From NCBI GenBank assembly GCA_964638985.1, contig CAZXCD010000005.1:1-43427 (forward strand): a stretch of DNA of 43,427 nucleotides, in the 5' to 3' direction. The position numbers were made by a program, and so were the translations under genes. The notes under the pieces are model-generated. The model saw nothing but the letters and a program-made list of their open reading frames with translations, ran no database searches and was not told the origin of the DNA. The stretch comes from an uncultured Candidatus Saccharibacteria bacterium (GTDB taxonomy: Bacteria; Patescibacteriota; Minisyncoccia; Phycocordibacterales; UBA9973). This document shows positions 10,378 through 37,478 of this stretch, in pieces. Every line of letters starts with the position of its first letter. Position 1 is the first letter of the stretch.

Positions 10378-11222
10378 AAGCAAAAAAATCATTGGGGCAA
10401 AATTTTTTAAAGTCGGAGATTGCGCTCAAGAAGATTGTTGAAGCGGGAGAAATAAAAAAGAGCGACGTGATTTTGGAAATCGGCCCAGGGAAAGGAGCGC
10501 TCACAGAAAAACTGTTAGCTTCTGGCTGTCAGCTTGTAGCTGTGGAGAAAGATCGAGATTTATATGAATTATTGAAAGATAAATTTCAGAAAGAAATTGC
10601 GGAAGGAAAATTAGTTTTGTTAAACGAAGACATACTTAAATTTCAAATTTCCAATTTCAAATTTCCAAAATATAAAATCATCGCCAACATTCCTTACAAC
10701 ATCACCGGCGCGATTTTAAAAAAATTTTTAACAGAAAAAAATCAGCCGGAAAGAATGATTTTGATGGTCCAGCGCGAAGTGGCGGGGAGAATAATCGCCC
10801 GCGATGGGAAGGAAAGCATTCTTTCAATGTCAGTCAAGGCTTACGGGGAACCAAAAATGATAATGAAGGTAAATAAAAGATATTTCTCTCCAGCGCCCAA
10901 AGTTGATTCCGCGATAATTGAAATAAAAAATATTTCGAGAAAAAATTTTCCTCCCCTCCTTGTGGAGGAGGGGGCAGGGGGTGGTGATTCAAAGAGATTA
11001 CCACCTCGCCCTTCGGGCACTCCTCCTCAAAAAAGAGGAGAGGGGACATTCGAGGAAAAATTTTGGGAAATAGTAAAAACCGGCTTTGCGCACAAACGTA
11101 AAAAACTTTCTTCAAACCTAAAAGGATTAATTTCTCCCCAAAAACTGTCTTCGGTAAACCTAGGTGACAAAAGGGCGGAAGATTTGGCTCTTTCAGACTG
11201 GATAAACCTAGCTAAAAACTAG
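10374..11222 (+). CDS. rsmA: 16S rRNA (adenine1518/1519-N6)-dimethyltransferase RsmA/KsgA
   Basis: LGQNFL, EIGPGKGALT, ANIPYNIT, and C-terminal FAHKRKKL. The ATGA start overlaps the upstream stop. Confidence 0.9.
   Translation: MKAKKSLGQNFLKSEIALKKIVEAGEIKKSDVILEIGPGKGALTEKLLASGCQLVAVEKDRDLYELLKDKFQKEIAEGKLVLLNEDILKFQISNFKFPKYKIIANIPYNITGAILKKFLTEKNQPERMILMVQREVAGRIIARDGKESILSMSVKAYGEPKMIMKVNKRYFSPAPKVDSAIIEIKNISRKNFPPLLVEEGAGGGDSKRLPPRPSGTPPQKRGEGTFEEKFWEIVKTGFAHKRKKLSSNLKGLISPQKLSSVNLGDKRAEDLALSDWINLAKN
10950..11046 (+). repeat. GC-rich multi-hairpin element, family B, in-frame in rsmA
   Basis: CCTCC-TTGT-GGAGG, GGTGG..CCACC and CCTCCTC-A6-GAGGAG hairpins. Encodes PLLVEEGAGGGDSKRLPPRPSGTPPQKRGEG. 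About 80% identical by eye to the copy at 24122-24216. Confidence 0.8.
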
Positions 11223-11308: not shown

Positions 11309-12190
11309 GTGCTGTTTCTTGTTGTTCTTTTTTTACTAAAAAACACTTCAATACTTAAAAACACAGTCAATTTTGTAAGGGGTGGAGGGGAAGGATTGAC
11401 TTATAATACCGTAGCGATAGGGGACCTGGTGAACAAAGACACAGACAAGGATGGAATCTTGGATTGGGAGGAGCCTCTGTGGGGTCTTGACCCGACAAAA
11501 ATAGAAACCACTCCAGGAGTTCCGGATAGTTCTGTAATAAAAAAATTAAGAGCTGAACAAGGTTTTGAAATAAGCACCACAGAAGGAATCGTTGAAAATT
11601 ATTCAGAAAATCTTACGGAGACAGAGAAATTTTCTAGGGAATTTTTTTCAACTGCAGCCGCCCTAAGCCAAAGCGGGGTTACTGACCAGGAAACAATGGA
11701 CCAAATTGGTGTCGCTTTGGCAGAAAAAATACAAAATTCCTCTCCAAGAAAAATATTTCAACTTTTGGACATAAAAGCTATAAATAACAACTCTGCCCAA
11801 ACAATAGAAACTTATGCTAGCTCTTTAAATAATGCCTATGTTAAAAATCCAATAAAAGGAAACGTTGTGGACATATTGGAAAAATTCATAATTGATGAAA
11901 ACAACGTTGATGGGAGTGTTTTAGAAGAACTGGATCCAATTATCAAGCAAACACAGAATTTGATAAACGAGGTACTAAAAATAAATGTACCGGAATCCCT
12001 TACCCTGCAACATTTGGACTTTTTAAATGCAATGGAAAGAGTTGTGGAAAATATAAGCAATATAAGGCTTTATAACAGTGACGTTGTTTTAGCGTTGGGG
12101 GGAATAAGCCAATATGACAAAAATACTATTCTTTTGGAATCTGCTCTAAAAAATCTTTCAGACGCAATTAGCCAAAAATTGAATAGTTAA
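11309..12190 (+). CDS. hypothetical envelope protein with a thrombospondin type-3-like Ca-binding motif
   Basis: Hydrophobic N-terminus and DTDKDGILDWEE motif. The GTG start is doubtful (see findings). Confidence 0.55.
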   Translation: MLFLVVLFLLKNTSILKNTVNFVRGGGEGLTYNTVAIGDLVNKDTDKDGILDWEEPLWGLDPTKIETTPGVPDSSVIKKLRAEQGFEISTTEGIVENYSENLTETEKFSREFFSTAAALSQSGVTDQETMDQIGVALAEKIQNSSPRKIFQLLDIKAINNNSAQTIETYASSLNNAYVKNPIKGNVVDILEKFIIDENNVDGSVLEELDPIIKQTQNLINEVLKINVPESLTLQHLDFLNAMERVVENISNIRLYNSDVVLALGGISQYDKNTILLESALKNLSDAISQKLNS

Positions 12191-12230
12191 ACAAAAAATC
12201 GTATAATAAAGTGGTAAAAATACAAAAAAA

Positions 12231-14708
12231 ATGATTTTCAAAAATAAAAAAAGTCAAAAAGTTATATCTGGTATTCTTATCATTTTAATATTATTACCAG
12301 CTGTTTTATTTTCCGATCCCAAAAAGGTAGAAGCAGCTTGGTGGTCTACTTTTTTGACAGATATTGAGACAGCAATTACATCGACATTTGGTGGAGTAAC
12401 AGCTGGATCAACCGTAACAAATACAGGCATCTCTATAAAAAATGTGGCAAAAGAAGTTTATAAACAGGTTCTTATGGCTATTGCCAGAAGAGCATTACAA
12501 GAAGTAACTAAAGGTGTTGTGGGCTGGATTAATTCCGGCTTTCATGGGAGTCCACTTTTCCTAGAAAATCCAGGTTCTTTCTTTGAAGATATAGTAAAAT
12601 CTGAGGTGAAAACAGTAATAGATATGGTCGGATATGATTCTGTCAGATTCCCTTATGGAAAAGATTTTGCCATAAACACGATTATGGCTTATAAACAAAC
12701 CACTGAAAACAATTTGGCATATTCTATGAGCAAAGTTATGTCAGACCCCGTGCAACTAAATAATTATCGGAACAATTTCAATGTCGGTGGGTGGAACGCA
12801 TTTTTGGTAAATACACAATATCCTCAAAATAATTATTTGGGTTTCCAGATGCTCATGAATGAAACTCTTGCAGAGAAAATATTATCATCACCTTCAGCCA
12901 ACAATGCAATAACAAAAGTAAAAGAAACACTCCAGCAAGGACAGGGTTTCTTGTCTCCGGAAAAGTGTATGGATCCTGGTACAAAGTATAATGACACCAT
13001 GGCAAATGCGTGGCAGAGACCAAGTTTTAATACTACCGAATTACAAAAATGGTACGCCGAGGAAGGAAAAAAGATTGCAAATTCAAACAAAGATGACAAA
13101 ACAAAACAAACAGAAATGAGGCTTTTGGCCGAACAATATGAAATACAAGTTAAGAAACAAAAAGCTGAGTGGGCAAAAAATAACACTTGTAAAAACTTAG
13201 TCGCCACAACTCCAGGTTCTGTGGTAGCAGATCAAATAAAAATTAATTTGGGCTCAAGTGTGCGCCAACAAGAACTTGCCGCTGCGCTGGGTAATAGCCT
13301 TTCTGCTATTTTTGATGCTTTAATAAATAAATTTATTGATGAGGGATTGAATGCTTTGGCAAGTAATAAAAACTCAAAACCAGTGGAAGATGAGTGGAGT
13401 TATGACGGTTTGAAACTTGGTAGCCCTGCCGACGGAAATAATTCATCTTGGGACTCTGGGCCTGATGAAGAAATTATTTTGGATAAATTTAAAAAACAGT
13501 TGCATGGTAAAACCATTGTCACGAAAGTTAATTTGGAGACTGGTGAAGAAAAAACCACCGAAGAAGTAGGAAACACCAACACCAAAGAAATTACCAAAGG
13601 CACATACATTCCCGGCGACATCGCGAACACAGAAACTGAAATAATACTATTGGAGTTGATTCCAAAAATAATCAACGATAGAGGCGATACAGGCCCTGGT
13701 ATTGTGCAATTGACACAAACACTTGATCAGTGCATGCCTGGACCAGACAAAAATTGGGAAAATAGATTGAAAGATGAGGAATCCAGAGTAGGCAAGTCCC
13801 TTTTAATGGAAAATAACGTAGATAGCGACGAACTTAAAGCAAAAGCGGCTGCTGATGCATTACGTGAATTAAAATTTGCAGCAAGCTCCTTTAAAGACTG
13901 GCTAACCACAAAAATAATAAACGAACTCCCCGGCTCAATACTTTATTTGGATGCTATAAAATCCATAGATGATTTTCCTCAGCAAACGAAAGAAGCTATA
14001 GACAGAAGGTCTGCAAAACTTCAAACACTTGCAAGACTAAAAGCTATAGCCGGAGACGAAAAAAGTATCCAAAAAACAGGGCTAGCGGCAATATCATCTC
14101 AACCAATATCTGGATCCAATGAAGAGAAAACTCTAGTTTTATTAAAAAAACAATATAATACACTTGTGGCTTCTATATCTTCCTCGGCTAGTGTGGAAGA
14201 AACAAGGGCTGAGTTAGATTTCTTAAAAGATCGTTCTTCGAATATAAAAAATCTGATTACTCAATGTAAAACTGAAGTAGAAAGCGCCGGTTGGCAAATC
14301 ACAAAAGAAGAAAAAGGGATTTTAGAGAATACCAACGATGATACCTACGGGGCACCTGTAGCAAGAAGAATAGAAAGAGAACAAAACGGCACCACAGAGA
14401 CAGAAAAATTTTGCTCTATTCCTATAGTAAGCGGTTATAGCCATGGAGAAATAATTAGGGAAGATTCTTCAAACAGAGGGAAGGATTTCACGTTTAGAAA
14501 TGAAAACAATAAACTAGGAGACGAGGGATATCAAGACATTCCGATTGTGAACGCAAAAAACGTGTATGGGGATATAACATGCACAGGGACATGTAGCTGG
14601 TTGGGTGGAAGTGGAACAGACAAACGAGTAAGTATTAAAATAGACTGCAACACAATATTCAAATCCAACATAATAGATTATACACACGCCGGAGATCCAG
14701 CAAACTAA
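12231..14708 (+). CDS. large secreted or membrane-anchored hypothetical protein (825 aa), T4SS-like cluster
   Basis: N-terminal signal-anchor (ILIILILLPAVLF..KKVEAA). Long uninterrupted ORF with a Cys-containing C-terminal region. Confidence 0.6.
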   Translation: MIFKNKKSQKVISGILIILILLPAVLFSDPKKVEAAWWSTFLTDIETAITSTFGGVTAGSTVTNTGISIKNVAKEVYKQVLMAIARRALQEVTKGVVGWINSGFHGSPLFLENPGSFFEDIVKSEVKTVIDMVGYDSVRFPYGKDFAINTIMAYKQTTENNLAYSMSKVMSDPVQLNNYRNNFNVGGWNAFLVNTQYPQNNYLGFQMLMNETLAEKILSSPSANNAITKVKETLQQGQGFLSPEKCMDPGTKYNDTMANAWQRPSFNTTELQKWYAEEGKKIANSNKDDKTKQTEMRLLAEQYEIQVKKQKAEWAKNNTCKNLVATTPGSVVADQIKINLGSSVRQQELAAALGNSLSAIFDALINKFIDEGLNALASNKNSKPVEDEWSYDGLKLGSPADGNNSSWDSGPDEEIILDKFKKQLHGKTIVTKVNLETGEEKTTEEVGNTNTKEITKGTYIPGDIANTETEIILLELIPKIINDRGDTGPGIVQLTQTLDQCMPGPDKNWENRLKDEESRVGKSLLMENNVDSDELKAKAAADALRELKFAASSFKDWLTTKIINELPGSILYLDAIKSIDDFPQQTKEAIDRRSAKLQTLARLKAIAGDEKSIQKTGLAAISSQPISGSNEEKTLVLLKKQYNTLVASISSSASVEETRAELDFLKDRSSNIKNLITQCKTEVESAGWQITKEEKGILENTNDDTYGAPVARRIEREQNGTTETEKFCSIPIVSGYSHGEIIREDSSNRGKDFTFRNENNKLGDEGYQDIPIVNAKNVYGDITCTGTCSWLGGSGTDKRVSIKIDCNTIFKSNIIDYTHAGDPAN

Positions 14709-14756
14709 ACCAGAAAGATTCGCGTACCGTGTTAGAGATAGAATTAAACAAGTAAA

Positions 14757-17201
14757 ATGAAAAATTTAGCCAAAAAACTAGTCCCATATTTATTTATACT
14801 CATCGCGCTAGTTGGGTTGTTTGGGTGGGCAGAGAAAGCGGAAGCCGAAAGCCCAGATGACCGGGGAGATTGTAAAATCACTACAGAATCTGCTTCGGGT
14901 AATACACCTCCCAGAATTGAAACTAAGGAAAATATAACAAGAGCGCAATGCACCGCGCTGAAGACTCCAACGGCAAGTACAGTATTTACTTTGAAAGTAG
15001 CAGTAGATGATATTAAAGGGATGTGTACGACTAATACCACAGTAACCGAGGATACAAAAAAACATTGTGAAGACGGCGGGGGGCAGTGGAGGCTAAAAGG
15101 AACTGATAATAATCCAGATGCAGCACCAGAAGCAGAGGATTCGGAAAAATCTGCGTTTGAAAACAAACTAAATTTAACTTGCAAAAACCCAATTAGTAAT
15201 TTTTCAGGATGTTTTCTACAAGTTTTCTATTGGCTTCTTCACGACATCCCAGCGCTTCTACTGGGAATTTCTGGTTATTTTTTTAATATCTTAATATCTG
15301 TGTCACTAGATGGTACTTTATTAAAAAGTGCTTTTGTAGGAGAAGCTTGGGGGGTGGTAAGAGACCTTTCAAACATTTTCTTTATACTTATTCTCCTCTA
15401 TATTGCTGTCAAAATTATTGTGGATTTAGAAGGACACGAGGCAAAACAAATGATAGTAAAAGTTGTAATTATGGCTTTGCTTATAAACTTTTCTATGTTT
15501 TTTACTCAAGTCATCATTGACACATCAAACGTTTTAGCTCTAGTTTTCTACAACAAAATGAAGGTAAGTACCGTAAACCCTGACGGTAACGAAAGACAGT
15601 ATTCTTCAATAAAGAACGAAAAAGATATTTCGGGTGGCTTGGTGGCCTCGTTTGATCCCACGACAAAGATACTGAGCTCGGGCTTTTTTGAACAAATAGA
15701 AAAAAAATATGACGCTAATGGAAAGATTATAGTCATAAATGGACAAGAACAAAGACAGCCCATAGGATTTGGAACAAAACTGGCAATCATTGTTCTTTCT
15801 GGCGCCATTATGATTGTCGCGACTTATGTTCTATTTGTCTCGGGGTTCTTCTTCCTTGGAAGATTGATTGAACTATGGACTTTAATTATTTTCTCTCCAT
15901 TCGCCTTTATGTCTTATACTGTACCTAAACTATCAGAGATGGAAGAATTGGGTTGGAAATCATGGTTTAAACGCTTAATCAGCTCGGCCTTTATGGCGCC
16001 GATTTTTATGTTCTTTTTGTATTTTATATTTATGTTAATAGCCTCTCCATTATTTAAAAATCTTATGCCGGAAAGCACTGAAACAACTGGCGTGGCTGGG
16101 TGGATAAAAATTATATTAAACGTGCTGTTGCCTTTTATATTTATTTGCGTACTTCTTCTGAAAGCAAAAGACTATGCGAAGAAAGGTTCCGGACAATTTG
16201 GGGAGGCGGTGATGAGTGTAGCCAAGGTCGCGGGTGGACTCGCCTTGGGTGCCGCAACGGGCGGGGTTTCAATAATGGGAACTGGAGCGGTTGGAAGTTT
16301 GTCTTCTGGAGTGGCAAGTAGTAAATTCCTAAATGAAAACCAAAATAAAAAAGGGTTGGGGGGTATGGCTGCTAGGGTGGCCCTAAAAACCGCAGACTAT
16401 GGTTCTAAGGCTTCATTTGATGTTAGAAAAATAGCTGGTGTCGGGGCTTTAGCTAAGATGGGCGGAATAAATCTAGAATCAGTAAAAGCAATCGGACTAG
16501 GATCTAAAGATGGTGGATATATACAAAGAAGAAAGGAACAAGTAGCAAGTAGGCAGAAGAGGGCAAAAGAGCTTGAGATAAGAGAAGATGAGCCATTAAA
16601 ACAAGCTTTAAATAAAGCAGAAGCAGACCTGCAAAGTCTTTTGAGTGACAACCATAACGTAATCGAGTCGCTAGATAAAGACATAGAAAAGAAAAGACAA
16701 GAGGTAAGCGATGCAGAGAAAAAATTCAACTCGGCTAAGGGTACTGCTAATGAAGGGGCTGCGAGAACAGCGTTAGATTTAGCAAACACTAAATTAGACT
16801 TCGCAAAAAACAACAAGCAGGATTTCCGAACAGGACAACAGTATAGAACTTATGATAGGGCAGGAAATTTTGTGCTCCAAACTGGAACTGGTCAAAATAT
16901 TAACGACCTAGAGGAAAACAAAAAACATGCGGCTCATGACATACAAAAAGAAAACAGGGCAAGAAAATGGGCTTATGCTGAAAGAATAGTAAAATGGAGT
17001 CCGGGATTTTATAAAGCCGACAGAGAAGCTGCTCATAAAATACGAATGGAAGCAAAAATAGAAGATACAGGAAAAGATCATGGAGGTGGTGGTGGAGGGC
17101 ATGCCCCAGCGGCAGCTCACCCTGCACCCCCGGCTCATGGCCCAGCTCCAGCAGTTGCACCTGCCGCCCCAGCTCATGGTCCCGCCCCCCACCAACCATA
17201 A
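14757..17201 (+). CDS. VirB6/TrbL-like polytopic membrane protein with coiled-coil and His/Pro/Ala-rich tail
   Basis: Signal peptide, Cys-pair N-terminal module, multi-TM block (about aa 150-500), K/E-rich coiled coil, and tail GGGGGGHAPAAAHPAPPAHGPAPAVAPAAPAHGPAPHQP. It lies next to the VirB3/VirB4-like genes. Confidence 0.55.
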   Translation: MKNLAKKLVPYLFILIALVGLFGWAEKAEAESPDDRGDCKITTESASGNTPPRIETKENITRAQCTALKTPTASTVFTLKVAVDDIKGMCTTNTTVTEDTKKHCEDGGGQWRLKGTDNNPDAAPEAEDSEKSAFENKLNLTCKNPISNFSGCFLQVFYWLLHDIPALLLGISGYFFNILISVSLDGTLLKSAFVGEAWGVVRDLSNIFFILILLYIAVKIIVDLEGHEAKQMIVKVVIMALLINFSMFFTQVIIDTSNVLALVFYNKMKVSTVNPDGNERQYSSIKNEKDISGGLVASFDPTTKILSSGFFEQIEKKYDANGKIIVINGQEQRQPIGFGTKLAIIVLSGAIMIVATYVLFVSGFFFLGRLIELWTLIIFSPFAFMSYTVPKLSEMEELGWKSWFKRLISSAFMAPIFMFFLYFIFMLIASPLFKNLMPESTETTGVAGWIKIILNVLLPFIFICVLLLKAKDYAKKGSGQFGEAVMSVAKVAGGLALGAATGGVSIMGTGAVGSLSSGVASSKFLNENQNKKGLGGMAARVALKTADYGSKASFDVRKIAGVGALAKMGGINLESVKAIGLGSKDGGYIQRRKEQVASRQKRAKELEIREDEPLKQALNKAEADLQSLLSDNHNVIESLDKDIEKKRQEVSDAEKKFNSAKGTANEGAARTALDLANTKLDFAKNNKQDFRTGQQYRTYDRAGNFVLQTGTGQNINDLEENKKHAAHDIQKENRARKWAYAERIVKWSPGFYKADREAAHKIRMEAKIEDTGKDHGGGGGGHAPAAAHPAPPAHGPAPAVAPAAPAHGPAPHQP

Positions 17202-17214
17202 TAGTTAAAAACTT

Positions 17215-17715
17215 ATGACAGAAAAATTACAAAAAATAATTAAAGAAGAAATTACGAAACTGCCTAAAGAAAATCAAGAAGTGATTAATGCTTTTGATTG
17301 GGTAAAAATAACGGAAGAAATTGGTAAAAAGTATCTTCTTGATGAAAATGAGATAAATGATTTACAAGTAGAAACGCTTTTGGTTTTGGTTGGGCTAGAA
17401 GAACCTGATTCTTTCGCAAAAAACATTGAAGACGAGGTGGGGACAAGTAAAGGAGAAGCGGATAAAATAACAGAGGAAATTTTACAAAAAATATTTATTC
17501 CGATAAATGATATCCTTATAGAGAACATTAAGAAAAGCGAAAAAATGAAAGACTCAAAATGGAATCAAAACCTTGATTTCATCCTCTCTGGTGGAAATTA
17601 TTCCAGTTTCTTGGAGAAAAGAGACAATATAGTTAATACAACCCCCACTTCCCCCTTGTCAGGGGGAACCACTTCTCCTCGCCCTGATAAGGGAGAGGTT
17701 GGGAGAGGGTTTTAG
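17215..17715 (+). CDS. hypothetical acidic protein (paralog of the next ORF)
   Basis: Shares the pattern LP.EN...INA..W....ET.L.L..L..P with ORF 17727. The C-terminal 25 aa derive from a repeat element. Confidence 0.5.
   Translation: MTEKLQKIIKEEITKLPKENQEVINAFDWVKITEEIGKKYLLDENEINDLQVETLLVLVGLEEPDSFAKNIEDEVGTSKGEADKITEEILQKIFIPINDILIENIKKSEKMKDSKWNQNLDFILSGGNYSSFLEKRDNIVNTTPTSPLSGGTTSPRPDKGEVGRGF
17640..17712 (+). repeat. GC-rich hairpin element (family B-like) forming the C-terminus of ORF 17215
   Basis: TTCCCCC-TTGTCA-GGGGGAA and CCTCGCCC-TGATAA-GGGAGAGG hairpins. Encodes TPTSPLSGGTTSPRPDKGEVGRGF, followed by the stop. Confidence 0.7.
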
Positions 17716-17726
17716 TAAAAAACAAT

Positions 17727-18479
17727 ATGGAAAACACAACTGATTTATTACAAATAAAAATTGAAAAAGCAAAAGCACAGTTGCCAGAGAATACATTGAA
17801 TGCTATCAATGCCGTCCCTTGGCAAGCCATCATATTACAGATGAGGGAGACAAAAGGATATAGCTTTGAACAATTAGGCGAATTAGAGACTGAAACAGAA
17901 TTATTACTCTGTGACCTTTTAAATCCGGAAAATTACCAAAAAGAATTGAAGGACCGCATGAAACTTTCAGACTCTCAGGTGAATGAATTAGTAAATGAAA
18001 TGAATAAACTTGTTTTTGTGAAAATAAAAGAAGAATTAATTAGAGGCACTGGAAATAAAAAAGTCTCCACAAACGAAACCAAAAATGCTCAGAATATCCC
18101 TATTAAAACCGCGCTAAGTGACAAAGAGCAAGAAAGAGACACCCAGATCCTAAAATCCGCCGGGATTGAGATTATTCCGGACCTGCCCGCAGCACCTTCA
18201 GCACAGCTGATGCAGGCGGGAAAGTTGGAAATAAGTTCTCCTCTTGAGGAGTACTCCACCCATAAAGTGGAGGGAGGTGGAAATGCATCCACCCCGGCTA
18301 AGGCCACCCCTCAAGAGGGGAATATTCATCCAATCTTGACTCAAAAATTGTCCGGCTTTGTGAAGAATAGTGTCGTGGAGACAGACCATTCTTTGCATAA
18401 TATTTCTCCAAAAGAATCCGAGAACACTCCCGGTGGTAATGTAAAAAAAATAGACCCCTATCGCGAGATTCCAGAATAA
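17727..18479 (+). CDS. hypothetical protein (paralog of ORF 17215)
   Basis: N-terminal similarity to the preceding ORF; carries a four-hairpin GC-rich insert. Confidence 0.5.
   Translation: MENTTDLLQIKIEKAKAQLPENTLNAINAVPWQAIILQMRETKGYSFEQLGELETETELLLCDLLNPENYQKELKDRMKLSDSQVNELVNEMNKLVFVKIKEELIRGTGNKKVSTNETKNAQNIPIKTALSDKEQERDTQILKSAGIEIIPDLPAAPSAQLMQAGKLEISSPLEEYSTHKVEGGGNASTPAKATPQEGNIHPILTQKLSGFVKNSVVETDHSLHNISPKESENTPGGNVKKIDPYREIPE
18238..18320 (+). repeat. four consecutive short GC-rich hairpins, in-frame in ORF 17727
   Basis: CTCCTC..GAGGAG, CTCCAC-N7-GTGGAG, GGTGG-N8-CCACC, CCCCTC..GAGGGG. Encodes SPLEEYSTHKVEGGGNASTPAKATPQEG. Confidence 0.7.
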
Positions 18480-18493
18480 GTTATAATTAACAA

Positions 18494-18919
18494 ATGCAGT
18501 TCAAGGTACCTCAATTTTTAGACATAGAGGACAAAATATTCGGCCCCTTTACTTTTAGGGAGTTTGCTTATTTGGCCGGTGGCGCAGGTCTGTGCTTCGT
18601 CCTTTACAAATTGCTTGGGCTTATTTTCGGAGCCATCCCTATTTTAATTATCGCCGGGTTTTCCATCGCCCTGACTTTCTACAAACCAAACAACAAACCC
18701 TTCATCAATATGATAGAGGCGGGATTTAAATATTTTACCCAAAACAAGCTTTATATTTGGAAAAAGCATGCGGGCAAAACCTCACCTCCAGCCCCTCTCC
18801 CGAGAGGAGAGAGTGGCGAAAAGCCGGGTGAGGTGGGTTCAAAATTAAACGGGAGCAGACTCCGAGACTTGGCGTGGAGTCTGGACGTTTTGGATTTAAG
18901 TAAACAAAAAAAGAGTTAA
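18494..18919 (+). CDS. PrgI-like (VirB3-analogue) T4SS membrane protein
   Basis: N-terminus MQFKVPQFLDIEDKIFGPFTFREF followed by two TM helices, as I recall for the PrgI family. It sits immediately upstream of the VirB4-like genes. Confidence 0.6.
   Translation: MQFKVPQFLDIEDKIFGPFTFREFAYLAGGAGLCFVLYKLLGLIFGAIPILIIAGFSIALTFYKPNNKPFINMIEAGFKYFTQNKLYIWKKHAGKTSPPAPLPRGESGEKPGEVGSKLNGSRLRDLAWSLDVLDLSKQKKS
18779..18834 (+). repeat. GC-rich hairpin element, family C, in-frame in the prgI-like gene
   Basis: Terminal inverted repeat ACCTCACC...GGTGAGGT encloses CCTCTCC-CGAGA-GGAGAGA. Encodes TSPPAPLPRGESGEKPGEV. Confidence 0.75.
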
Positions 18920-18923
18920 TTTT

Positions 18924-19562
18924 ATGGCCTTAAACGCAAAAGCAACACAAGAATTCATACCAATCAAAGAAATACGCGATGGAATCATCGTACTAAAAGG
19001 GGGCGAACTCCGAGCAATTGTGCTTGCCAACTCGGTCAACCTATCCTTAAAATCGTCCGATGAACAAAAGGCAACCATTCTTCAATTCCAGAATTTTTTA
19101 AACACTTTGGATTTCCCTGTACAAATCTCGGTCCAGTCCAGAAGGCTAGACATCAGGCCGTACCTTCTGCTTTTGGAAAACAGAATCAAAGTGCAAAGCG
19201 AGCCCTTGATTAAACTGCAGACGAAAGAGTATATAGAATTCATCAGAAACTTTACCGAATCGGTAGCCATCATGACAAAAAGTTTCTTTATCGTGATACC
19301 ATATTCTCACACTGTGTTTAAATCCGATTCTGGGATATTGGGGAGATTGTTTTCTAAAAAAAGCAAACAAGAGGCGCAAGCGCTAAAACAAATAGACTTT
19401 GAGGAAAAGAGATCTCAGTTGGAAGAAAGAGTGGCGGTCATCCAGCAAGGATTGTCCCGTTGCGGTATAAATTCTGCTCAGTTGGACACAGAAGAGGTAG
19501 TGGAAGTATTTTATAAAGTTTTCAACCCGGGAGAATTGGAGGGGAAAATTAAGATAGAGTAA
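18924..19562 (+). CDS. VirB4 N-terminal-domain-like protein (separate ORF)
   Basis: ATQEFIPIKEIRDGIIVLKGGELRAIVLANSVNLSLKSSDEQKATILQFQNFLNTL...FYKVFNPG resembles, from memory, the first ~200 aa of Gram-positive VirB4-class ATPases (Tn916 Orf16 / PrgJ type). Confidence 0.5.
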   Translation: MALNAKATQEFIPIKEIRDGIIVLKGGELRAIVLANSVNLSLKSSDEQKATILQFQNFLNTLDFPVQISVQSRRLDIRPYLLLLENRIKVQSEPLIKLQTKEYIEFIRNFTESVAIMTKSFFIVIPYSHTVFKSDSGILGRLFSKKSKQEAQALKQIDFEEKRSQLEERVAVIQQGLSRCGINSAQLDTEEVVEVFYKVFNPGELEGKIKIE

Positions 19563-19566
19563 TATT

Positions 19567-21417
19567 ATGGACTTTTTTAAAAAATTATTAGGTGGGAAAA
19601 AAGCGACGGAAGAAAAGGAAGTGAGAGCTTCTGTCTTGGCGGTGATGCCAGAAGAAATTTATCAGTCCGCCACCCTGGAACTCCAAGATGTCATCGCACC
19701 ATCAGCTTTAAAAATCGCCTCCAAATCCATAAGTCTGGGAGATAAAATTGCTCGCACTTTTTTTATTATTTCTTACCCTAGATTCCTGACGGACAATTGG
19801 TTTTCTCCCATAATCAACTTAGATAAGGTTTTTGATATTTCCATTTTCATCCATCCGATAGACACCTCCCTAGTACTCCGACAATTCCAGAAAAAAGTCG
19901 CCGAAGTACAGAGCCAGATAAGTGTGCGCGAAGCGAAGGGAATGGTGCGCGACCCGATGCTTGATACCGCTTATCAAGATTTGGAAGGGCTCCGCAACAA
20001 TTTGATTCAAGCGCAAGAAAAAATGTTTGACGTGGGCATTTACATTACAATTTATGCCGACAACGAACTGGAACTTTTCAAAATAGAAAATGAGATAAAA
20101 TCAATCCTGGAATCAAAGCTCATCTACATCAAACCGGCGCTCTTCCAACAGGAAGATGGTTTCAAGAGCGTTATCCCCATAAACACAGACCTGCTCGGCA
20201 TTCATCAGAAGTTGAATTCTGAACCGCTTAGTAGCGTCTTCCCATTTATCTCCTTTGACCTGACCTCCGACAAAGGTATACTCTACGGCATCAACAGACA
20301 CAACTCCAGTCTGGTCATCTTTGACAGATTTTCTTTGGAAAATTACAACTCAGTAACCTTCGCCAAGTCCGGCTCCGGAAAATCTTACGCAACAAAATTG
20401 GAAATCTTAAGATCGCTAATGTTTGACGTGGATGTCATTGTGATAGACCCGGAGAGGGAATATGAATTCTTGTCGGAGGCCGTGGGGGGAAGATATTTTA
20501 ATATTTCTCTTTCTTCAGACCACCACATCAATCCTTTTGACCTGCCCATCCCGCACGAAGATGAAACAGCCGAGGATGTTTTGCGTTCAAACATAATAAA
20601 CTTGGTAGGACTTTTCAGATTGATGTTGGGCGGACTGACTCCCGAAGAAGATTCAATGGTGGACCGAGCTATTTCCGAAACTTACGCCATGAAAGATATC
20701 ACTCCCGAGTCTGATTTCTCAAACATTGAGCCTCCGCTTCTCTCAGACTTTGAGTTGGTGCTCGGAGGAATGGACGGAAGCGATTCAATAGTCACCAGGT
20801 TGGCGAAATATACGCGCGGTTCTTGGGCGACATTCTTAAACAGACCATCCAATGTGGATATCAACAAAAAATTCGTGGTATTTTCCGTCCGTGACATGGA
20901 GGACGAACTGAAACCAGTAGCCATGTACATCATTATGCATTACATCTGGAATACGATAAGAAAAAATCTAAAAAAACGCTTACTGGTCGTAGACGAGGCC
21001 TGGTGGATGATGAAATCCGAAGACACCGCGTCATTCTTGTACTCTATCGCCAAGAGAGGCAGAAAATATTACCTGGGTCTTTCCACCATCACCCAAGACG
21101 CGGCAGACTTTATGAAGTCTCCATATGGTGTGCCTATCATTACCAACTCTTCCATTCAGCTTCTCCTCAAACAATCGCCCACTACTATAGATATTTTGCA
21201 AAAAACCTTCAACCTTACAGATGAAGAAAAATATTTGCTCTTGGAATCCGGACTCGGGGAGGGCATCTTCTTCGCGGGGTTAAAACACGTCGCCATAAAG
21301 GTTATTTCTTCTTACACAGAAGACCAGATAATCACCTCAGACCCTTCACAGATACTTTCAAATAGAAAAGCCAAGGAAGAGCAGGAACGGGCGGAGACTG
21401 AAAGAACCTCACCCTAG
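19567..21417 (+). CDS. virB4: VirB4-like T4SS ATPase (central and C-terminal ATPase part)
   Basis: Walker A FAKSGSGKSYATK, Walker B LLVVDEAWWMM, and the IAPSALK....FFIISYPRFL pattern typical of VirB4/TraC-like proteins. Confidence 0.85.
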   Translation: MDFFKKLLGGKKATEEKEVRASVLAVMPEEIYQSATLELQDVIAPSALKIASKSISLGDKIARTFFIISYPRFLTDNWFSPIINLDKVFDISIFIHPIDTSLVLRQFQKKVAEVQSQISVREAKGMVRDPMLDTAYQDLEGLRNNLIQAQEKMFDVGIYITIYADNELELFKIENEIKSILESKLIYIKPALFQQEDGFKSVIPINTDLLGIHQKLNSEPLSSVFPFISFDLTSDKGILYGINRHNSSLVIFDRFSLENYNSVTFAKSGSGKSYATKLEILRSLMFDVDVIVIDPEREYEFLSEAVGGRYFNISLSSDHHINPFDLPIPHEDETAEDVLRSNIINLVGLFRLMLGGLTPEEDSMVDRAISETYAMKDITPESDFSNIEPPLLSDFELVLGGMDGSDSIVTRLAKYTRGSWATFLNRPSNVDINKKFVVFSVRDMEDELKPVAMYIIMHYIWNTIRKNLKKRLLVVDEAWWMMKSEDTASFLYSIAKRGRKYYLGLSTITQDAADFMKSPYGVPIITNSSIQLLLKQSPTTIDILQKTFNLTDEEKYLLLESGLGEGIFFAGLKHVAIKVISSYTEDQIITSDPSQILSNRKAKEEQERAETERTSP

Positions 21418-21484
21418 CCCTCTCCTGGAAGGAGAGGGGGAAATTAGTCCCTTCCCATTCCAGGGGAAGGCGGGGGATGAGGTT
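21405..21484 (+). repeat. GC-rich hairpin element, family C (full copy), overlapping the virB4 stop codon
   Basis: Perfect terminal inverted repeat AACCTCA...TGAGGTT. Inner hairpins CCCTCTCC-TGGAA-GGAGAGGG and CCTTCCC-N7-GGGAAGG. The virB4 TAG lies inside the element. Confidence 0.8.
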
Positions 21485-21516
21485 AGCATTAGGAAATGCT
21501 ATAATAATCACAAGTT

Positions 21517-22503
21517 ATGCAATTCAGATTTTTACCTTCATATTTAATAGCAATGCTTTTGTTGCTAGGAATCTTTTTACCTTCTAGCGCACTGGCTGTT
21601 TCTTCCAGTAGTATTTTGGTTGATGTGGTCCCAGAAAACCCGGCTCCAAATGAAAATGTAAGCATAAGCCTAAGCAGCTATGCCAGCAATCTAGACAGTG
21701 TTTTAATAAATTGGTCGGTAAATGGCAAGACCATGCTGTCTGGAATCGGCAAAAAATCTTTTTCCCTTAAAGCTCCAGATGCCGGAGGAGAAACAAGCAT
21801 CGTAGCTTCTATTTCTTTGCCGGATGGCACCATGGACAAGAGAATAATGATCCGGCCGTCTGTGATGGCGCTTCTTTGGCAAGCCAATGACTCTTATGTT
21901 CCGCCATTTTATCGTGGCAAGGCCATGCCGACAGTGGGAAGTGAAATAAAAATAGTGGCAATTCCGGAAATTAAAAACGGTAATCAAACGGTAAATCCTA
22001 AAAACATTGTCTATGCCTGGAAAAGAGATTATACCAACAAGCAAGACAGCTCTGGCTATGGCAAGAGTTCTTTTACTTATGTGGATGACTACTTAGAAGA
22101 CTCCAGCACCATAGGAGTGACCGCCACCACCACAGACCAAAAGTATTCTTCTTCCGCAAGCATCAATGTGCAGGCGGGGGAACCAAAAATTTTATTTTAT
22201 ACGAAGGATGCAACTTTGGGAACACTTTGGGAAAAATCTCTCTCTGACGGACACCAAATACAAGGCAATGAAATTATTGAAGCTGCGCCATATTTTATTT
22301 CCCCTAAAGAAATCAGAATCCCGACCCTCGTATTCAACTGGTTCATTAATGATTACCAAATCGCCGTCCCTTCTTATAAGAAGAATATTATGCCACTCGC
22401 GGTACAATCTGGAACATCGGGAACGTCAATAATAAAACTGAAAATTGAGGACACTTATAAAATATTCGTAGACGCAAGTAAGGAGCTTAAGGTAGAATTT
22501 TAA
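21517..22503 (+). CDS. secreted hypothetical protein (beta-rich), T4SS-like cluster
   Basis: Signal peptide (LLLLGIFLPSSALA). TATAAT lies just upstream, after an AGCATT/AATGCT hairpin. Confidence 0.55.
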   Translation: MQFRFLPSYLIAMLLLLGIFLPSSALAVSSSSILVDVVPENPAPNENVSISLSSYASNLDSVLINWSVNGKTMLSGIGKKSFSLKAPDAGGETSIVASISLPDGTMDKRIMIRPSVMALLWQANDSYVPPFYRGKAMPTVGSEIKIVAIPEIKNGNQTVNPKNIVYAWKRDYTNKQDSSGYGKSSFTYVDDYLEDSSTIGVTATTTDQKYSSSASINVQAGEPKILFYTKDATLGTLWEKSLSDGHQIQGNEIIEAAPYFISPKEIRIPTLVFNWFINDYQIAVPSYKKNIMPLAVQSGTSGTSIIKLKIEDTYKIFVDASKELKVEF

Positions 22504-22511
22504 TACCCAGT

Positions 22512-23804
22512 ATGATTTTATTAAATCAAATGAAAAAACTTTTTATTTACATTTCAATACTAATAGTAATAACCGGAATATTTAGTCCAATATTTAAAAC
22601 AGAAGCGGCAGATCCTCAGATGGGGACTTGTACCTACACGTATGAATCCTATGGTAAACCTGTTATTGAAAAAACTCGTACCATAAAAGATAATTGTAAA
22701 GGACCAGATAGGGTGTGGGAACCGGATACTGCTCCATCAGCAGACACAGCACTAGGAACTTGTACCTACACGTATGAATCCTATGGTACTCAAAAATTTG
22801 AACTTACTCGCACCTTTAAAACTAATTGCACTGGAGCAGACAGAACCTGGAAGGAATCAACGCTGGCAGAATTTCAAGCAGAAAAAGCTGCCAAGGAAGG
22901 CACTGGCGGTGAAAAAGATGATGGTTTTGTGGGACCTCCAGATCCATATTATCATTTTTTAGCCCCATTACCTTGCGAACCAGGAACTCCCGATTGTGAC
23001 AGCAGTGGAAAACTTATAACCTTTGATCCTAGTGGAGAAAACAAAATAGGTGGGTATTTGAATGTAATGATACGAATATTCATTGGTATGTGCGCCGTGT
23101 TGGCGGTGATAATGATTGTCGTGGGGGGCATAGAATATATGACGAGTGAGTTGATATCAAATAAAGAAAATGGCAAACACCGGATTACCGGCGCAATCTT
23201 CGGACTTGTACTGGCCTTAGGAGCCTGGACGCTTCTAAATACAATCAATCCTGATTTATTGAAGACAGATTTAACAAGTTTGCAAAATGTAGAGGTGGTA
23301 GTAGATCTAGGTGGTGAAGGAAATACTCCACTCAATGAAACAACGATCCAAAATGATTTAAAAGGTGTCGGCATTGTTTGCCCTAAAGATGGTGGGGCTG
23401 GAGCACTTTCTGGAATTGCCCAATCTTATGTTGGACACTCAACTTATAGTATGGAAAAAAGAAATACCACAAGTGGAGGGATAGCTTATGTTGATTGTTC
23501 TTCTTATTTGAGTCAGGTCTATGTATGTGCGGGGCTTAGAAACCCTGGAGGTACCTCTCTTGGAATATTTGGCTCAGGAAGTACCCCTGTCACAAGCATT
23601 AGTACAGACGGAACAACAATAAATGGTGTGGCTCTAAAAATTGGTGACTTAATCGGATGGACCGCGGGTGGAAAAGAAAAATATGGCCATGTTATGATGT
23701 ATGTGGGTGGCGGAAAAATGATTGACGCACAAGGACAAGGTGGTGTAGCAATAAGGGCGGTAAGTTCCTACGCAGCAAGAATAAAATTTGTTAAAAAACT
23801 TTAA
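22512..23804 (+). CDS. fusion protein: tandem Cys modules + TrbC/VirB2-like pilin hairpin + NlpC/P60 cell-wall hydrolase
   Basis: Signal peptide. Two 44-aa repeats (GTCTYTYESYG...NC.G.DR.W). Two TM helices (IGGYLNVMIRIFIGMCAVLAVIMIVVGG / ITGAIFGLVLALGAWTLL). NlpC/P60 Cys (VDCSSYLSQVY) and His (GHVMMYVGGGKMIDA). Confidence 0.7.
   Translation: MILLNQMKKLFIYISILIVITGIFSPIFKTEAADPQMGTCTYTYESYGKPVIEKTRTIKDNCKGPDRVWEPDTAPSADTALGTCTYTYESYGTQKFELTRTFKTNCTGADRTWKESTLAEFQAEKAAKEGTGGEKDDGFVGPPDPYYHFLAPLPCEPGTPDCDSSGKLITFDPSGENKIGGYLNVMIRIFIGMCAVLAVIMIVVGGIEYMTSELISNKENGKHRITGAIFGLVLALGAWTLLNTINPDLLKTDLTSLQNVEVVVDLGGEGNTPLNETTIQNDLKGVGIVCPKDGGAGALSGIAQSYVGHSTYSMEKRNTTSGGIAYVDCSSYLSQVYVCAGLRNPGGTSLGIFGSGSTPVTSISTDGTTINGVALKIGDLIGWTAGGKEKYGHVMMYVGGGKMIDAQGQGGVAIRAVSSYAARIKFVKKL
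22626..22788 (+). repeat. intragenic tandem duplication (exact 31-mer ACTTGTACCTACACGTATGAATCCTATGGTA at 22626 and 22758, period 132 nt)
   Basis: Read directly. Corresponds to the duplicated 44-aa Cys module. Confidence 0.85.
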
Positions 23805-23808
23805 TTTT

Positions 23809-25191
23809 ATGTCAAAAAGAAACTTTATACTTTTAACAATAATCTTAACCATCATCGTGCTAGCAGTATTGGGATTTTTGTATTCACAGCGCAACGTGAC
23901 GACCCCCGGGGAAGACAGCTCCGGCACAAATTTCATTTCGCAATTTAACCCATTCGGGAGCGATAAGCCCACCCCCACTCCACCTGGAACAACCCCCACC
24001 GATGTTTCTGGTTACGAGCCTGGACCAGAACAAGAAGAAGTGAAGTTAAAAAAAGTTTCCAGTATGCCTGTAGCCGGTTTCACTGTCTATCCTAAAGAAA
24101 GATTGAAAGAGGTAGCAGTAGCTCCCCTCCTTGTGGAGGAGGGGGTTGGGGGTGGTGCTAGCTCTACAACACCACCTCCCCCTTCGGGTACTCCTCCTCA
24201 GAAAGGAGGAGAGGGATCCAAACCCACCCCACCAGCAACAGAGTTTGCATCTGCTCTCCGATATGTAGATAGGGTCACAGGAAATATTTACCAAACTTTC
24301 GCGGATAAAATAGAAGAGAGGAGGTTTTCAACCACAACGATACCTAAAGTATATGAAGCATTCTTTGGCAACAAAGGGACTTCTGTGGTGATGCGATATT
24401 TGAAAGAAGATAGTACAACCATTACGACTTTTGTCGGCAATCTCCCGAAAGAGCTACTCGGAGGGGACTCTACCGAGGACAATGAAATAAAGGGGGTGTT
24501 CTTACCGGAAGATGTGCGGGATGTAAGTCTATCCCAAGATGCCGGAAGCATTTTTTATCTGTTTAATGTTGGAGAAAACATCGTGGGTACGACTTTAGGC
24601 TTAACCACCAATAAAAAATCCCAAATTTTTGATTCACCTTTTACCGAATGGCTGTCCCGGTGGCCGAATAACAAACTAATCACTCTCACCACCAAACCCG
24701 CCTCCGGAGTTCCCGGATACGTGTATGGGATAGACCTGCTAAACAACAAAAATTTACGCCAAATCTTCGGTAATATAAACGGGTTGACTACACTCACGAG
24801 CCCTAATGGCAAATTGATTCTTTATGGAAATGATGGTTTATCTCTAGGTATTTATCACACGGACACAAAAGTATCGGAATCGCTTGGAATAAAAACTCTG
24901 CCGGAAAAATGTGTTTGGGGAATGGCTAGTGATGTAGTTTATTGTGGAGTACCTGGATCCATAGCTGGGGCGGGTTATCCTGATGCCTGGTATCGCGGAG
25001 AAGTATCTTTCGTAGATCAAATTTGGAAAATAGATATAACTTCCGGAAATGCCACCCTCCTTGTAGACCCGATGACAACAGAAGGAGGGGAGGAAGTGGA
25101 TAGTATAAAACTTGCGCTAGATGCAGACGAAAATTATTTATTTTTTGTAAACAAAAAAGATTCCTTTCTTTGGGAACTTAAATTAAAATAA
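23809..25191 (+). CDS. membrane-anchored hypothetical protein, possibly beta-propeller-like
   Basis: ATG 23809 gives a signal-anchor (MSKRNFILLTIILTIIVLAVLGF). The ORF-track TTG start at 23788 overlaps the upstream gene. Carries a family B insert. Confidence 0.55.
   Translation: MSKRNFILLTIILTIIVLAVLGFLYSQRNVTTPGEDSSGTNFISQFNPFGSDKPTPTPPGTTPTDVSGYEPGPEQEEVKLKKVSSMPVAGFTVYPKERLKEVAVAPLLVEEGVGGGASSTTPPPPSGTPPQKGGEGSKPTPPATEFASALRYVDRVTGNIYQTFADKIEERRFSTTTIPKVYEAFFGNKGTSVVMRYLKEDSTTITTFVGNLPKELLGGDSTEDNEIKGVFLPEDVRDVSLSQDAGSIFYLFNVGENIVGTTLGLTTNKKSQIFDSPFTEWLSRWPNNKLITLTTKPASGVPGYVYGIDLLNNKNLRQIFGNINGLTTLTSPNGKLILYGNDGLSLGIYHTDTKVSESLGIKTLPEKCVWGMASDVVYCGVPGSIAGAGYPDAWYRGEVSFVDQIWKIDITSGNATLLVDPMTTEGGEEVDSIKLALDADENYLFFVNKKDSFLWELKLK
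24122..24216 (+). repeat. GC-rich multi-hairpin element, family B, in-frame in ORF 23809
   Basis: Collinear with the rsmA copy. Encodes PLLVEEGVGGGASSTTPPPPSGTPPQKGGEG. Confidence 0.8.
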
Positions 25192-25192
25192 A

Positions 25193-25282
25193 TTCACCCT
25201 CCCCACTCCCTCCCTTCGCAGGGAGGGGACCTTCTCCCCCTGCGAAGGGAGGGAGTGCCTGAAAGGCAAGGGGGTGTTTGAA
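25193..25282 (+). repeat. GC-rich multi-hairpin element, family A, intergenic copy
   Basis: TTCACCCTCCCC...GGGGGTG ends, with CCCTCCC-TTCGCA-GGGAGGG and CTCCCCC-TGCGAA-GGGAGGGAG hairpins. Fills the whole 92-nt gap between the convergent ORF 23809 and jag. Confidence 0.8.
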
Positions 25283-36853: not shown

Positions 36854-36986
36854 TTCACCCCTCAGGCATTTCTATGCCAGCTCCCCTTCGCAGGGGAGCA
36901 AAAATCCAATACTAATATGAATCTTGATTACAGAGAATTTTTCCTCCCCTGCGAAGGGGAGGTGCCCGTTAGGGCGGAGGGGTGAA
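36854..36986 (+). repeat. GC-rich element, family A long form (two halves split by a 44-nt AT-rich spacer)
   Basis: TTCACCCCT...AGGGGTGAA termini. Hairpins GGCAT-N4-ATGCC, CTCCCC-TTCGCA-GGGGAG, CCTCCCC-TGCGAA-GGGGAGG. The right half encodes the C-terminal 18 aa of the DUF559 ORF. Confidence 0.75.
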
Positions 36987-37326: not shown

Positions 37327-37339
37327 ATATTTTAGTATA

Positions 37340-37478
37340 TCACCCCTCTGTTTTTTGATTACAAAAAACACCTCCCCTTCGCAGGGGAGGAAAAACCGCT
37401 AATCATATGTTTAGGGAGTATTTGCCTTTCCTGCGAAGGAAAGGTGGCTCTGTGTAATCACAGAGACGGAAAGGTGAA
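37340..37478 (+). repeat. GC-rich element, family A long form (degenerate)
   Basis: TCACCCCTC...AAGGTGAA termini. Hairpins TGTTTTTT-N6-AAAAAACA, CCTCCCC-TTCGCA-GGGGAGG, CCTTTCC-TGCGAA-GGAAAGG, CTCTGTG-TAAT-CACAGAG. Confidence 0.65.

Follow-up and report, generated by a model that had tools for sequence, protein, structure and literature searches.

In Southlakia epibionticum, a member of the Saccharibacteria, the gene cluster SEML1_0006-0019, which resembles the conjugative type IV secretion systems (T4SSs) of Gram-positive bacteria, includes essential pilin genes and has no recognisable relaxase or coupling protein, is essential in co-culture for epibiotic growth (Wang et al. 2023, PMC10633639), and reviews describe the T4SS of Patescibacteria as the first one shown to be essential for the very bacterium that carries it. 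A survey of 3,035 Patescibacteria genomes placed most of their VirB4 proteins in one clade nested in MPF-FATA, found TrsD to be the commonest partner, usually adjoining virB4, and reported PrgI and VirB2-like pilins as common and relaxases as rare (Quiñonero-Coronel et al. 2025, PMC12102498). According to the same work, VirD4-like genes occur in most of these genomes, usually far from virB4, no VirB8-like protein has been recognised, and the cluster lies near dnaA, dnaN, rnpA, ksgA and rpmH in Paceibacteria and Microgenomatia; in class ABY1, T4SS genes next to comF/recG/radA are noted. A 2025 FEMS review summarises the same picture (PMC12857230), and a 2026 preprint on host-RNA feeding reports tubes at the parasite-host interface that 'may be' T4SS pili, together with a monophyletic VirB4. 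We focus here on an eleven-gene T4SS-like cluster at positions 11309-25191 of contig CAZXCD010000005.1 (assembly GCA_964638985.1); the whole stretch analysed, 43,427 nucleotides, is referred to as the window.

We consider it probable that the cluster is a chromosomal T4SS of the Patescibacteria clade in Candidatus Nomurabacteria (class Paceibacteria), a vertically inherited derivative of MPF-FATA systems that is no longer conjugative. Reading it as a domesticated T4SS restates the conclusions of PMC12102498 and PMC10633639; the system is already known, and the window is an instance of what was described between 2023 and 2025. The details added are incremental leads and not a new kind of system. 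First, the protein at the VirB6 position is linked to a membrane protein of Mycoplasma integrative and conjugative elements (ICEs). Second, the VirB2-like pilin was possibly inherited with a monoderm ancestor. Third, the cell-wall enzyme attached to the pilin changes between near-identical systems.

The gene cluster and its described counterparts

Eleven co-directional open reading frames (ORFs) make up the cluster, with intergenic gaps of, in order, 40, 48, 13, 11, 14, 4, 4, 99, 8 and 4 bp, as a first-pass annotation of the sequence had described in reporting a T4SS-like set with tiny gaps. The genes, referred to below by their first position, are as follows, with the basis of each description in brackets.

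11309-12190, + strand: acidic protein of 293 residues that opens the cluster and has a short hydrophobic segment at its N-terminus (ORF)
12231-14708, + strand: anchored or secreted protein of 825 residues, with an N-terminal signal/anchor and 8 Cys (ORF)
14757-17201, + strand: polytopic membrane protein at the VirB6 position, 814 residues (hydropathy, AlphaFold2 model)
17215-17715, + strand: acidic soluble paralog A, 166 residues, isoelectric point 4.7 (BLASTP, alignment)
17727-18479, + strand: acidic soluble paralog B, 250 residues, isoelectric point 5.2 (BLASTP, family alignment)
18494-18919, + strand: small PrgI/VirB3-like membrane protein, 141 residues (PF12666)
18924-19562, + strand: TrsD/TraC-like protein, the VirB4 N-domain as a gene of its own, 212 residues (NF045975, NF045971, NF041427)
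19567-21417, + strand: VirB4 ATPase, 616 residues (NF045971, PF19044)
21517-22503, + strand: Ig-like anchored or secreted protein, 328 residues (AlphaFold2 model, Foldseek)
22512-23804, + strand: VirB2-like pilin fused to NlpC/P60, 430 residues (PF18895, NlpC/P60)
23809-25191, + strand: last gene of the cluster, 460 residues, transmembrane anchor and conserved domain (ORF, hydropathy)

Like the T4SSs of the Patescibacteria clade, the cluster has a monoderm-type VirB4, placed in the MPF-FATA lineage by similarity only, with a separate TrsD-like gene upstream of virB4 and with a PrgI/VirB3-like protein and a VirB2-like pilin beside it; like those of Paceibacteria, it has no relaxase nearby and a chromosomal site near dnaA, dnaN, rnpA, ksgA (rsmA) and rpmH. 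Saccharibacteria, on the other hand, encode an array of several short pilins and keep peptidase and lysozyme in genes of their own, whereas here one pilin gene is fused to an enzyme. Moreover, PMC12102498 reports few VirB6 matches, whereas the protein at the VirB6 position here is linked to Mycoplasma ICE families.

With the conjugative MPF-FATA systems (Prg/Pcf of pCF10, Trs of pGO1, CD1110 of CTn2, and Tn916/ICEBs1) the cluster shares a CD1110-type VirB4, PrgI, TrsD, an NlpC/P60 hydrolase and the lack of outer-membrane parts. It differs from them in that the window holds no relaxase, VirD4/TcpA, integrase or recognisable VirB8-like protein (PrgL/TcpC), in that it has a VirB2-like pilin, which is lacking there according to PMC12102498 and PMC12857230, and in that it is fixed in the chromosome and not mobile.

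The VirB4, TrsD and PrgI core

Four proteins of the cluster match known families clearly, among them those of three adjacent genes. The protein of 18494-18919 matches PrgI (PF12666) with an E value of 1.1e-8 and 35.9 bits, above the gathering score of 27, and has a single hydrophobic hairpin region at residues 26-65 in the hydropathy profile, in keeping with its earlier description as PrgI/VirB3-like. The ATPase of 19567-21417 matches the CD1110-family VirB4 model NF045971 with an E value of 1.9e-108 (363.7 bits, cutoff 325) and PF19044 at 4.6e-25, and both its Walker A (GSGKS, residue 269) and Walker B (VVDEAW, residue 474) motifs are intact. Its nearest solved structure is the VirB4 of the Firmicute Thermoanaerobacter (4ag5, 2.2e-38), and TrwK of the diderm plasmid R388 is matched at 3.4e-8. 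The exact VirB4 sequence has no record in public assemblies.

The preceding ORF, 18924-19562, matches the N-terminal parts of VirB4 models, namely NF045975 (3.8e-10) and positions 1-167 of NF045971, and also TrsD (NF041427, 6.8e-5); a profile search of it alone against PDB sequences gave nothing credible. Since the ATPase ORF covers positions 182-733 of the CD1110 model, the two ORFs together tile one full VirB4, which agrees with the earlier view of a VirB4 spread over two ORFs. A TraC-like match (PF26593) is recorded for a 212-residue ORF at the same position on a matching ENA contig. In all 68 loci in which this could be tested the TrsD-like ORF stops before virB4, and in 51 of those its frame differs from that of virB4; the two-ORF VirB4 is thus a conserved TrsD and VirB4 pair and not a broken gene.

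Chromosomal setting and immobility

A VirB4 scan with one genome per species yielded 592 stretches with relatives, and the results that follow come from the best 80. All of these 80 loci belong to metagenome-assembled genomes of Patescibacteria, mostly titled Candidatus Nomurabacteria or Paceibacterota, with VirB4 proteins that are 75-93% identical to that of the window. Wherever the contig reaches, the gene order is pcrA, rsmA, the eleven genes, jag/yidC/rnpA on the opposite strand, dnaA and dnaN, with small local differences in two of the 80, and the genes on either side of the cluster are housekeeping genes for up to 10 kb. An identical copy of the 14757 protein, in the same gene neighbourhood, is encoded on a groundwater scaffold in ENA (ANAN16-1_SAMN03202996 scaffold_1282). 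Among the 55 loci in which dnaA is complete, the median identity to the window proteins is 86% for VirB4, 79% for DnaA, 72% for TrsD, 70% for DnaN, 66% for YidC and 59% for PrgI; the cluster is as conserved as the replication genes.

The first-pass annotation had placed the cluster between rsmA and the rpmH-jag/dnaA origin genes, and the gene content confirms it. The other large ORFs of the window encode housekeeping proteins: a PP2C phosphatase, PcrA, a spermidine-synthase-like membrane protein, RsmA, Jag, YidC, RnpA and DnaA, and further DnaN, PBP1A, a TyrRS-like protein, RuvC, YebC, RuvB, TsaE and PolA; the flanks also contain a DUF559 gene and the gene of an isolated PilB-type ATPase. DnaA boxes flank dnaA, a perfect one at 27278 and near-perfect ones at 27289, 27371, 28874 and 28882. 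The GC skew has no clear sign change at dnaA within the window, and the origin is therefore assigned from the gene content and the DnaA boxes. A scan of the window for promoters and terminators did no better than shuffled sequence.

An alternative is that the cluster is an ICE, or the recent remnant of one, with relaxase, coupling protein and integrase just outside the window. Its parts are indeed those of monoderm conjugation channels, and two direct repeats of about 94 nt, at 10951-11044 (in rsmA) and 24122-24215 (in 23809), 91-94% identical in two matched stretches and 13,171 bp apart, bracket most of the cluster and could be taken for att sites. However, the cluster occupies the same chromosomal place in the relatives, with housekeeping genes on both sides, its VirB4 is conserved above DnaA, and its GC content (0.36-0.44) is like that of the flanks (0.35-0.46), as expected from the host-like composition noted earlier. 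The repeats, moreover, belong to a dispersed family of GC-rich hairpins that is also found in pcrA, in jag and beside the DUF559 gene; one of the two falls within rsmA and the other within the final gene of the cluster, and the roughly 90% of rsmA orthologs that lack the insert still carry the cluster, so that we rejected them as att sites. Pfam scans found no relaxase, VirD4/FtsK-type coupling ATPase, integrase or Rep in the large ORFs of the 43-kb window, matching, for the window, what had been noted before, and the gene tables of two close relatives (loci L081-L083) hold no mobility genes. What marks a Tn916/ICEBs1-type element, namely a relaxase, a VirD4/TcpA/FtsK-type ATPase, an integrase with att repeats and variable presence, is thus not seen here. 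We regard an ICE as very improbable; the recurring gene order, the conservation of VirB4 and the lack of nearby mobility genes all favour the domesticated chromosomal apparatus proposed before, and a synteny comparison, which had been suggested as a check across Patescibacteria, returned the same order in the Nomurabacteria and Paceibacteria genomes fetched.

A VirB2-like pilin fused to an exchanged cell-wall enzyme

The protein of 22512-23804 consists of a signal peptide, two Cys-rich repeats (GTCTYTYESYG at residues 38 and 82), a two-helix hairpin of the VirB2/T4SS_pilin kind at residues ~177-245, and an NlpC/P60 domain. A signal peptide followed by a hydrophobic two-helix hairpin that matches pilin profiles is what characterises VirB2/TrbC-type pilins. 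T4SS_pilin (PF18895) matches residues 191-245 at 5.1e-7, over the gathering score; the Mbov_0395/MMCAP2_0565 pilin-like family of NCBIfam matches the hairpin at 8.3e-7, below its cutoff; and TrbC of Pfam matches the protein at 0.013. The NlpC/P60 domain, at residues 326-419 (2.7e-9), retains the catalytic Cys of DCSS at residue 329 and the His of GHVMMY at residue 393. The fusion of a pilin-like protein to an NlpC/P60 hydrolase, as described earlier, is therefore upheld by both profiles.

Among the relatives the two halves behave differently. A local hidden Markov model detects the VirB2-like hairpin in all 71 proteins at the pilin position, 65 of which continue for 155-280 residues beyond it. 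The C-terminal regions of at least 60 residues, present in 68 of the 71, fall into at least 21 clusters that have no BLAST similarity to one another, and the N-terminal domains vary as well. A Pfam scan of a sample of 25 of these proteins found T4SS_pilin in 22 and TrbC/VirB2 in 8, together with NlpC/P60 in 7, VanY in 5, Amidase_5 in 3, Peptidase_M15_4 and YkuD in 2 each, and SLT and CHAP in 1 each; Ig-like or carbohydrate-binding domains are additionally present in some. Genome pairs with 90-95% identical VirB4 proteins have a C-terminal cluster in common in only 19 of 124 cases, approximately as often as distant pairs. The fused cell-wall-enzyme domain is thus swapped among close relatives while the hairpin stays constant. 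One relative, GCA_965027055.1, has a bare pilin of 147 residues at the same position, and this, together with the hairpin kept in 71 of 71, identifies the gene as the pilin of the system. A protein search with the hairpin alone gave matches that are all at most 193 residues long, several of them on contigs too short for a full gene, and is therefore no guide to fusion architectures. Enzyme-domain swapping on the pilin is a new detail: PMC12102498 mentions neither a pilin-enzyme fusion nor domain swapping.

The exchange bears on whose wall is cut. Close relatives should share the architecture of their own wall, and an enzyme class that is exchanged this fast hints that the fused enzyme acts on a variable host wall and not on that of the bacterium itself. 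Were the T4SS instead a housekeeping envelope machine without host contact, which remodels the cell's own wall or displays surface proteins during growth or division and sits near the origin for high expression, its very high conservation and fixed place beside yidC/jag/dnaA would be natural, and a peptidoglycan hydrolase would recall enzymes of the VirB1 type, with which a producer opens its own wall. Nevertheless, the enzyme class shifts between endopeptidase, carboxypeptidase, amidase, transglycosylase and L,D-transpeptidase fold among genomes with VirB4 proteins more than 90% identical, and two further products of the cluster, the Ig-like protein and the large surface protein with its variable sequence, suggest outward contact. 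The Saccharibacteria counterpart is essential in host co-culture, although this does not separate the two ideas. We consider the housekeeping role unlikely.

The protein at the VirB6 position and the Mycoplasma link

The 14757 protein has an N-terminal signal/transmembrane segment, a Cys-containing outer segment and, by hydropathy, a membrane core of ~6-7 helices at residues ~150-480, followed by a C-terminal part of about 330 residues that forms a long coiled-coil cytoplasmic domain and then a Gly/Pro/Ala-rich tail (AlphaFold2 model, mean confidence score pLDDT 75). The tail itself (window 17081-17198) is a Gly/His/Pro/Ala low-complexity segment, HGGGGGGHAPAAAHPAPPAHGPAPAVAPAAPAHGPAPHQP, encoded at 71% GC and modelled with a pLDDT below 50. 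The protein resembles VirB6 in having at least five helices and a large hydrophilic domain and in being encoded with VirB3 and VirB4, and its gene keeps its place in the relatives, three genes upstream of PrgI.

Profiles do not extend this to TrbL. None of 54 family members (the window protein and 53 relatives) matches a TrbL/VirB6 model of Pfam at an E value of 0.1; the window protein alone finds nothing relevant in Pfam or NCBIfam and falls short of the same threshold for the Mycoplasma ICE models; a profile search of PDB sequences returned coiled-coil noise, such as syntaxin; a Foldseek search of the PDB with the full-length model gave nothing significant (TrwI/VirB6, 7o3v_F, at rank 40 with an E value of 3.6 and a target TM-score of 0.35); and a tblastn search of 72,556 plasmids with the membrane core had no match. 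The VirB6/TrbL-like label given in the first-pass annotation is thus not confirmed as worded; of it, polytopic topology and position stand. On the other hand, 21 of the 54 family members match the MMCAP2_0566 conjugal transfer family (NF045848, best 7e-9) and 10 match the Mbov_0396 ICE transmembrane family (NF045889). In one of them (P0043), residues 177-477 align to model positions 7-301 of 322, the entire membrane core. The scores are far under the curated cutoffs (28.5 versus 90 bits), which makes this a matter of remote homology and not of membership: the family appears to be a remote homolog of the transmembrane conjugal transfer protein of Mycoplasma ICEs, and the VirB6 label appears best founded on topology, position and this remote match.

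Three parts of the cluster find counterparts in Mycoplasma ICEs: the pilin hairpin (8.3e-7), the polytopic family (up to 7e-9) and, for the N-terminal part of the Mbov_0397 VirB4 model, the TrsD-like protein (3.8e-10). All of these matches are below cutoff and denote remote homology, not membership. The genes Mbov_0395/0396/0397 would be adjacent to judge from their locus-tag numbers only, and Mycoplasma ICEs are mobile, with a coupling protein and a transposase. Taken together, the three matches suggest a link with the Mollicutes branch of MPF-FATA. PMC12102498 leaves open whether the VirB2-like pilins were taken over from T4SSs of other classes; with a pilin-like family present in Mycoplasma ICEs, the pilin may have come with a monoderm, Mollicutes-like ancestor rather than from diderm systems.

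Other partners in the cluster

Four genes, 11309, 12231, 21517 and 23809, each lack a Pfam or NCBIfam match when searched alone. They had been described as four secreted or anchored proteins; the last three each have one N-terminal hydrophobic segment, and 11309 has only a short one. The 11309 protein has a thrombospondin-type-3 (TSP3)-like calcium-binding motif, DTDKDGILDWEE, at residues 44-55, in one copy. In a mixed set of family sequences four members match TSP3_bac (best 7.6e-9) and also CglD/MtsD, and were assigned to the 11309 family through this motif. In the relatives its ortholog is invariably found between rsmA and the gene that follows, and a profile search of the PDB found no relative of the protein. 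In the same mixed set there is one weak TolB-propeller match (1.3e-3) and one SleB/PG_binding_1 match, neither of which can be assigned to a family.

The 12231 protein is conserved over its N-terminal ~250 residues (for example WINSGFHG and PQNN) and variable in length and sequence beyond them; its relatives have 323-1094 residues and 19-50% identity, and it has no relative in Pfam, NCBIfam or PDB sequences. It is a candidate for a surface or host-contact component.

The acidic proteins 17215 and 17727 are paralogs, as had been proposed, with 26% identity over 101 residues (BLASTP, E value 6e-5) in a common helical N-domain of ~105 residues. Paralog A has a C-terminal tail that stems from a GC-rich insert and is absent in orthologs, and the family alignment of paralog B has the conserved C-terminal motifs HPILxQKLSG ... 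DPYREIPE. In GCA_965027055.1 a gene for a 122-residue 23S_rRNA_IVP/bAvd protein is inserted between the acidic paralogs and prgI (L082 3482-3850, L083 796-1164).

The 21517 protein, whose ortholog comes after virB4 in each of the 55 full-dnaA loci, is modelled by AlphaFold2 (pLDDT 76) as an N-terminal helix and three tandem Ig/FnIII-like beta-sandwich domains, and has an invariant PPFYxGK motif. Foldseek relates the model to multi-Ig/FnIII chains of the PDB, for example Hoc (3shs, 7.8e-8), and to no NTF2/VirB8 fold. The three Ig-like domains rule it out as the missing VirB8.

The 23809 protein consists of an N-terminal transmembrane anchor, a Pro-rich linker, into which the GC-rich repeat insert of 24122-24215 falls, and a conserved Trp- and Cys-containing domain of ~320 residues. 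Its ortholog is present in all 55 full-dnaA loci (median 45% identity); it has no family match, and no PDB relative in a profile search. In the mixed set, one of 73 sequences matched CPR_Pam_pilin_C (6.1e-5), a match that was assigned to no particular family and was dropped as a link to Pam pili; the operon of these pili sits with ATP-synthase genes according to a 2026 preprint, which leaves the T4SS unmentioned.

A possible mechanism and competing functions

From the parts described, the following mechanism can be proposed. PrgI and the VirB6-position protein would hold VirB4 and TrsD to the membrane, and these two would pull the pilin hairpin out of it; the extracted hairpins could then assemble into a short pilus or stalk that spans the thin monoderm wall. 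Both pilin termini face outward in F-type (VirB2-type) pili, an arrangement that would expose the Cys-rich N-terminal domain and the fused cell-wall enzyme on the outside of the filament, from where the enzyme may act on the host wall. The Ig-like protein, the 825-residue protein and the last anchored protein could form an extracellular scaffold or contact part that engages the host cell. A more far-reaching and somewhat doubtful reading takes the constant hairpin with its exchangeable enzyme and variable N-terminal domain as the mark of a device for breaching the host envelope, in which the pilus of each Nomurabacteria lineage would bear on its outside a wall enzyme that fits its host and the cell would then feed through the channel, perhaps on host RNA or nucleotides. 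If this is true, the host type of uncultured Paceibacteria could be predicted from the enzyme cassette in their genomes.

A further possibility, somewhat doubtful, is an import machine in which, as in the archaeal Ced system, a VirB4 ATPase, a pore and a pilus take up host DNA, RNA or other macromolecules for a nucleotide-auxotrophic cell. Ced is VirB4-powered and works without a relaxase, as do Bordetella Ptl and Brucella VirB, the latter two also without a coupling protein, and the window has neither relaxase nor coupling protein; Ptl and Brucella VirB are, however, diderm systems with VirB7/9/10. The CedB model NF041017 matches the window VirB4 at 6.5e-8, but only over ~70 residues of the P-loop region, whereas the full-length match is to conjugative VirB4. 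A CedA-type partner was not recognised, and the gene set as a whole is that of a monoderm conjugation system. The position of the ABY1 systems beside comF/recG/radA (PMC12102498) and the preprint that ties host-RNA feeding to possible T4SS pili and a monophyletic VirB4 favour import, and a wall-cutting enzyme borne on the pilin would serve uptake too. In S. epibionticum, on the other hand, loss of comEC ended competence and not viability (PMC12857230, reporting PMC10633639), which shows that DNA uptake is not the essential role there, and sequence cannot reveal the direction of transport.

Several points weigh against the T4SS as we have described it. First of all, a pilin of 430 residues that bears domains at either end may be unable to form a packed filament of the VirB2 type, and a second, bare pilin gene is absent from this cluster. 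Second, the swapping of enzymes could stem from other causes than host-wall diversity, for example from neutral shuffling of domains or an arms race against inhibitors. Third, the VirB6 equivalence is remote, with 28.5 bits against a cutoff of 90 and the window protein itself short of an E value of 0.1; no VirB8-like protein was recognised in the cluster, 21517, the best placed candidate, being Ig-like; and 11309, 12231 and 23809 have no profile match to solved structures. A coupling protein may be encoded elsewhere in the genome, the statement that there is none applying to the window. Finally, all steps past gene identification are ones that we infer from sequence.

GC-rich repeats and neighbouring genes

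The direct repeats in rsmA and 23809 are members of a family of GC-rich multi-hairpin elements of ~75-95 nt, with ~70% GC against ~39% for the genome, predicted folds of -52 to -62 kcal/mol and loops such as TTCG and GCGA. Further copies are as follows.

7820-7910: copy in pcrA
25523-25613: copy in jag
25184-25257: intergenic copy
17640-17715: probable copy
18780-18818: probable copy
18289-18321: probable copy
40108-40164: probable copy in polA
35036-35063 (yebC) / 40936-40963 (polA): probable copies

The elements lie in frame within housekeeping and T4SS genes, to which they add Pro/Gly/Glu-rich peptides such as PLLVEEGAGGG...PSGTPPQKRGEG. The inserts of rsmA and pcrA are absent from most orthologs, and the peptide signature recurs in a different gene of another genome (L008). 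Rfam assigned the repeats to no family and found tRNAs only. In their behaviour the elements resemble the Rickettsia palindromic elements.

A perfect 27-nt inverted repeat (36938-36964 / 37369-37395) brackets the DUF559 gene (36928-37371, - strand), which has a Vsr-like endonuclease fold. This repeat, too, is one of the GC-rich hairpin elements, of which more copies lie at 36878-36905 and 37421-37446; the region 36878-37446 may be a small mobile cassette. Between a tRNA-Gly gene (2143-2214) and a ZIP transporter gene lies a stretch of 213 nt with 69% GC (2407-2619), for which Rfam has no match at its gathering thresholds. The PilB/GspE-type assembly ATPase (37552-39249, - strand; T2SSE E value 8e-114) is encoded at a distance of 12 kb from the T4SS and has neither pilin nor platform genes as neighbours in the window; it presumably belongs to the type IV pilus machinery known in Patescibacteria.

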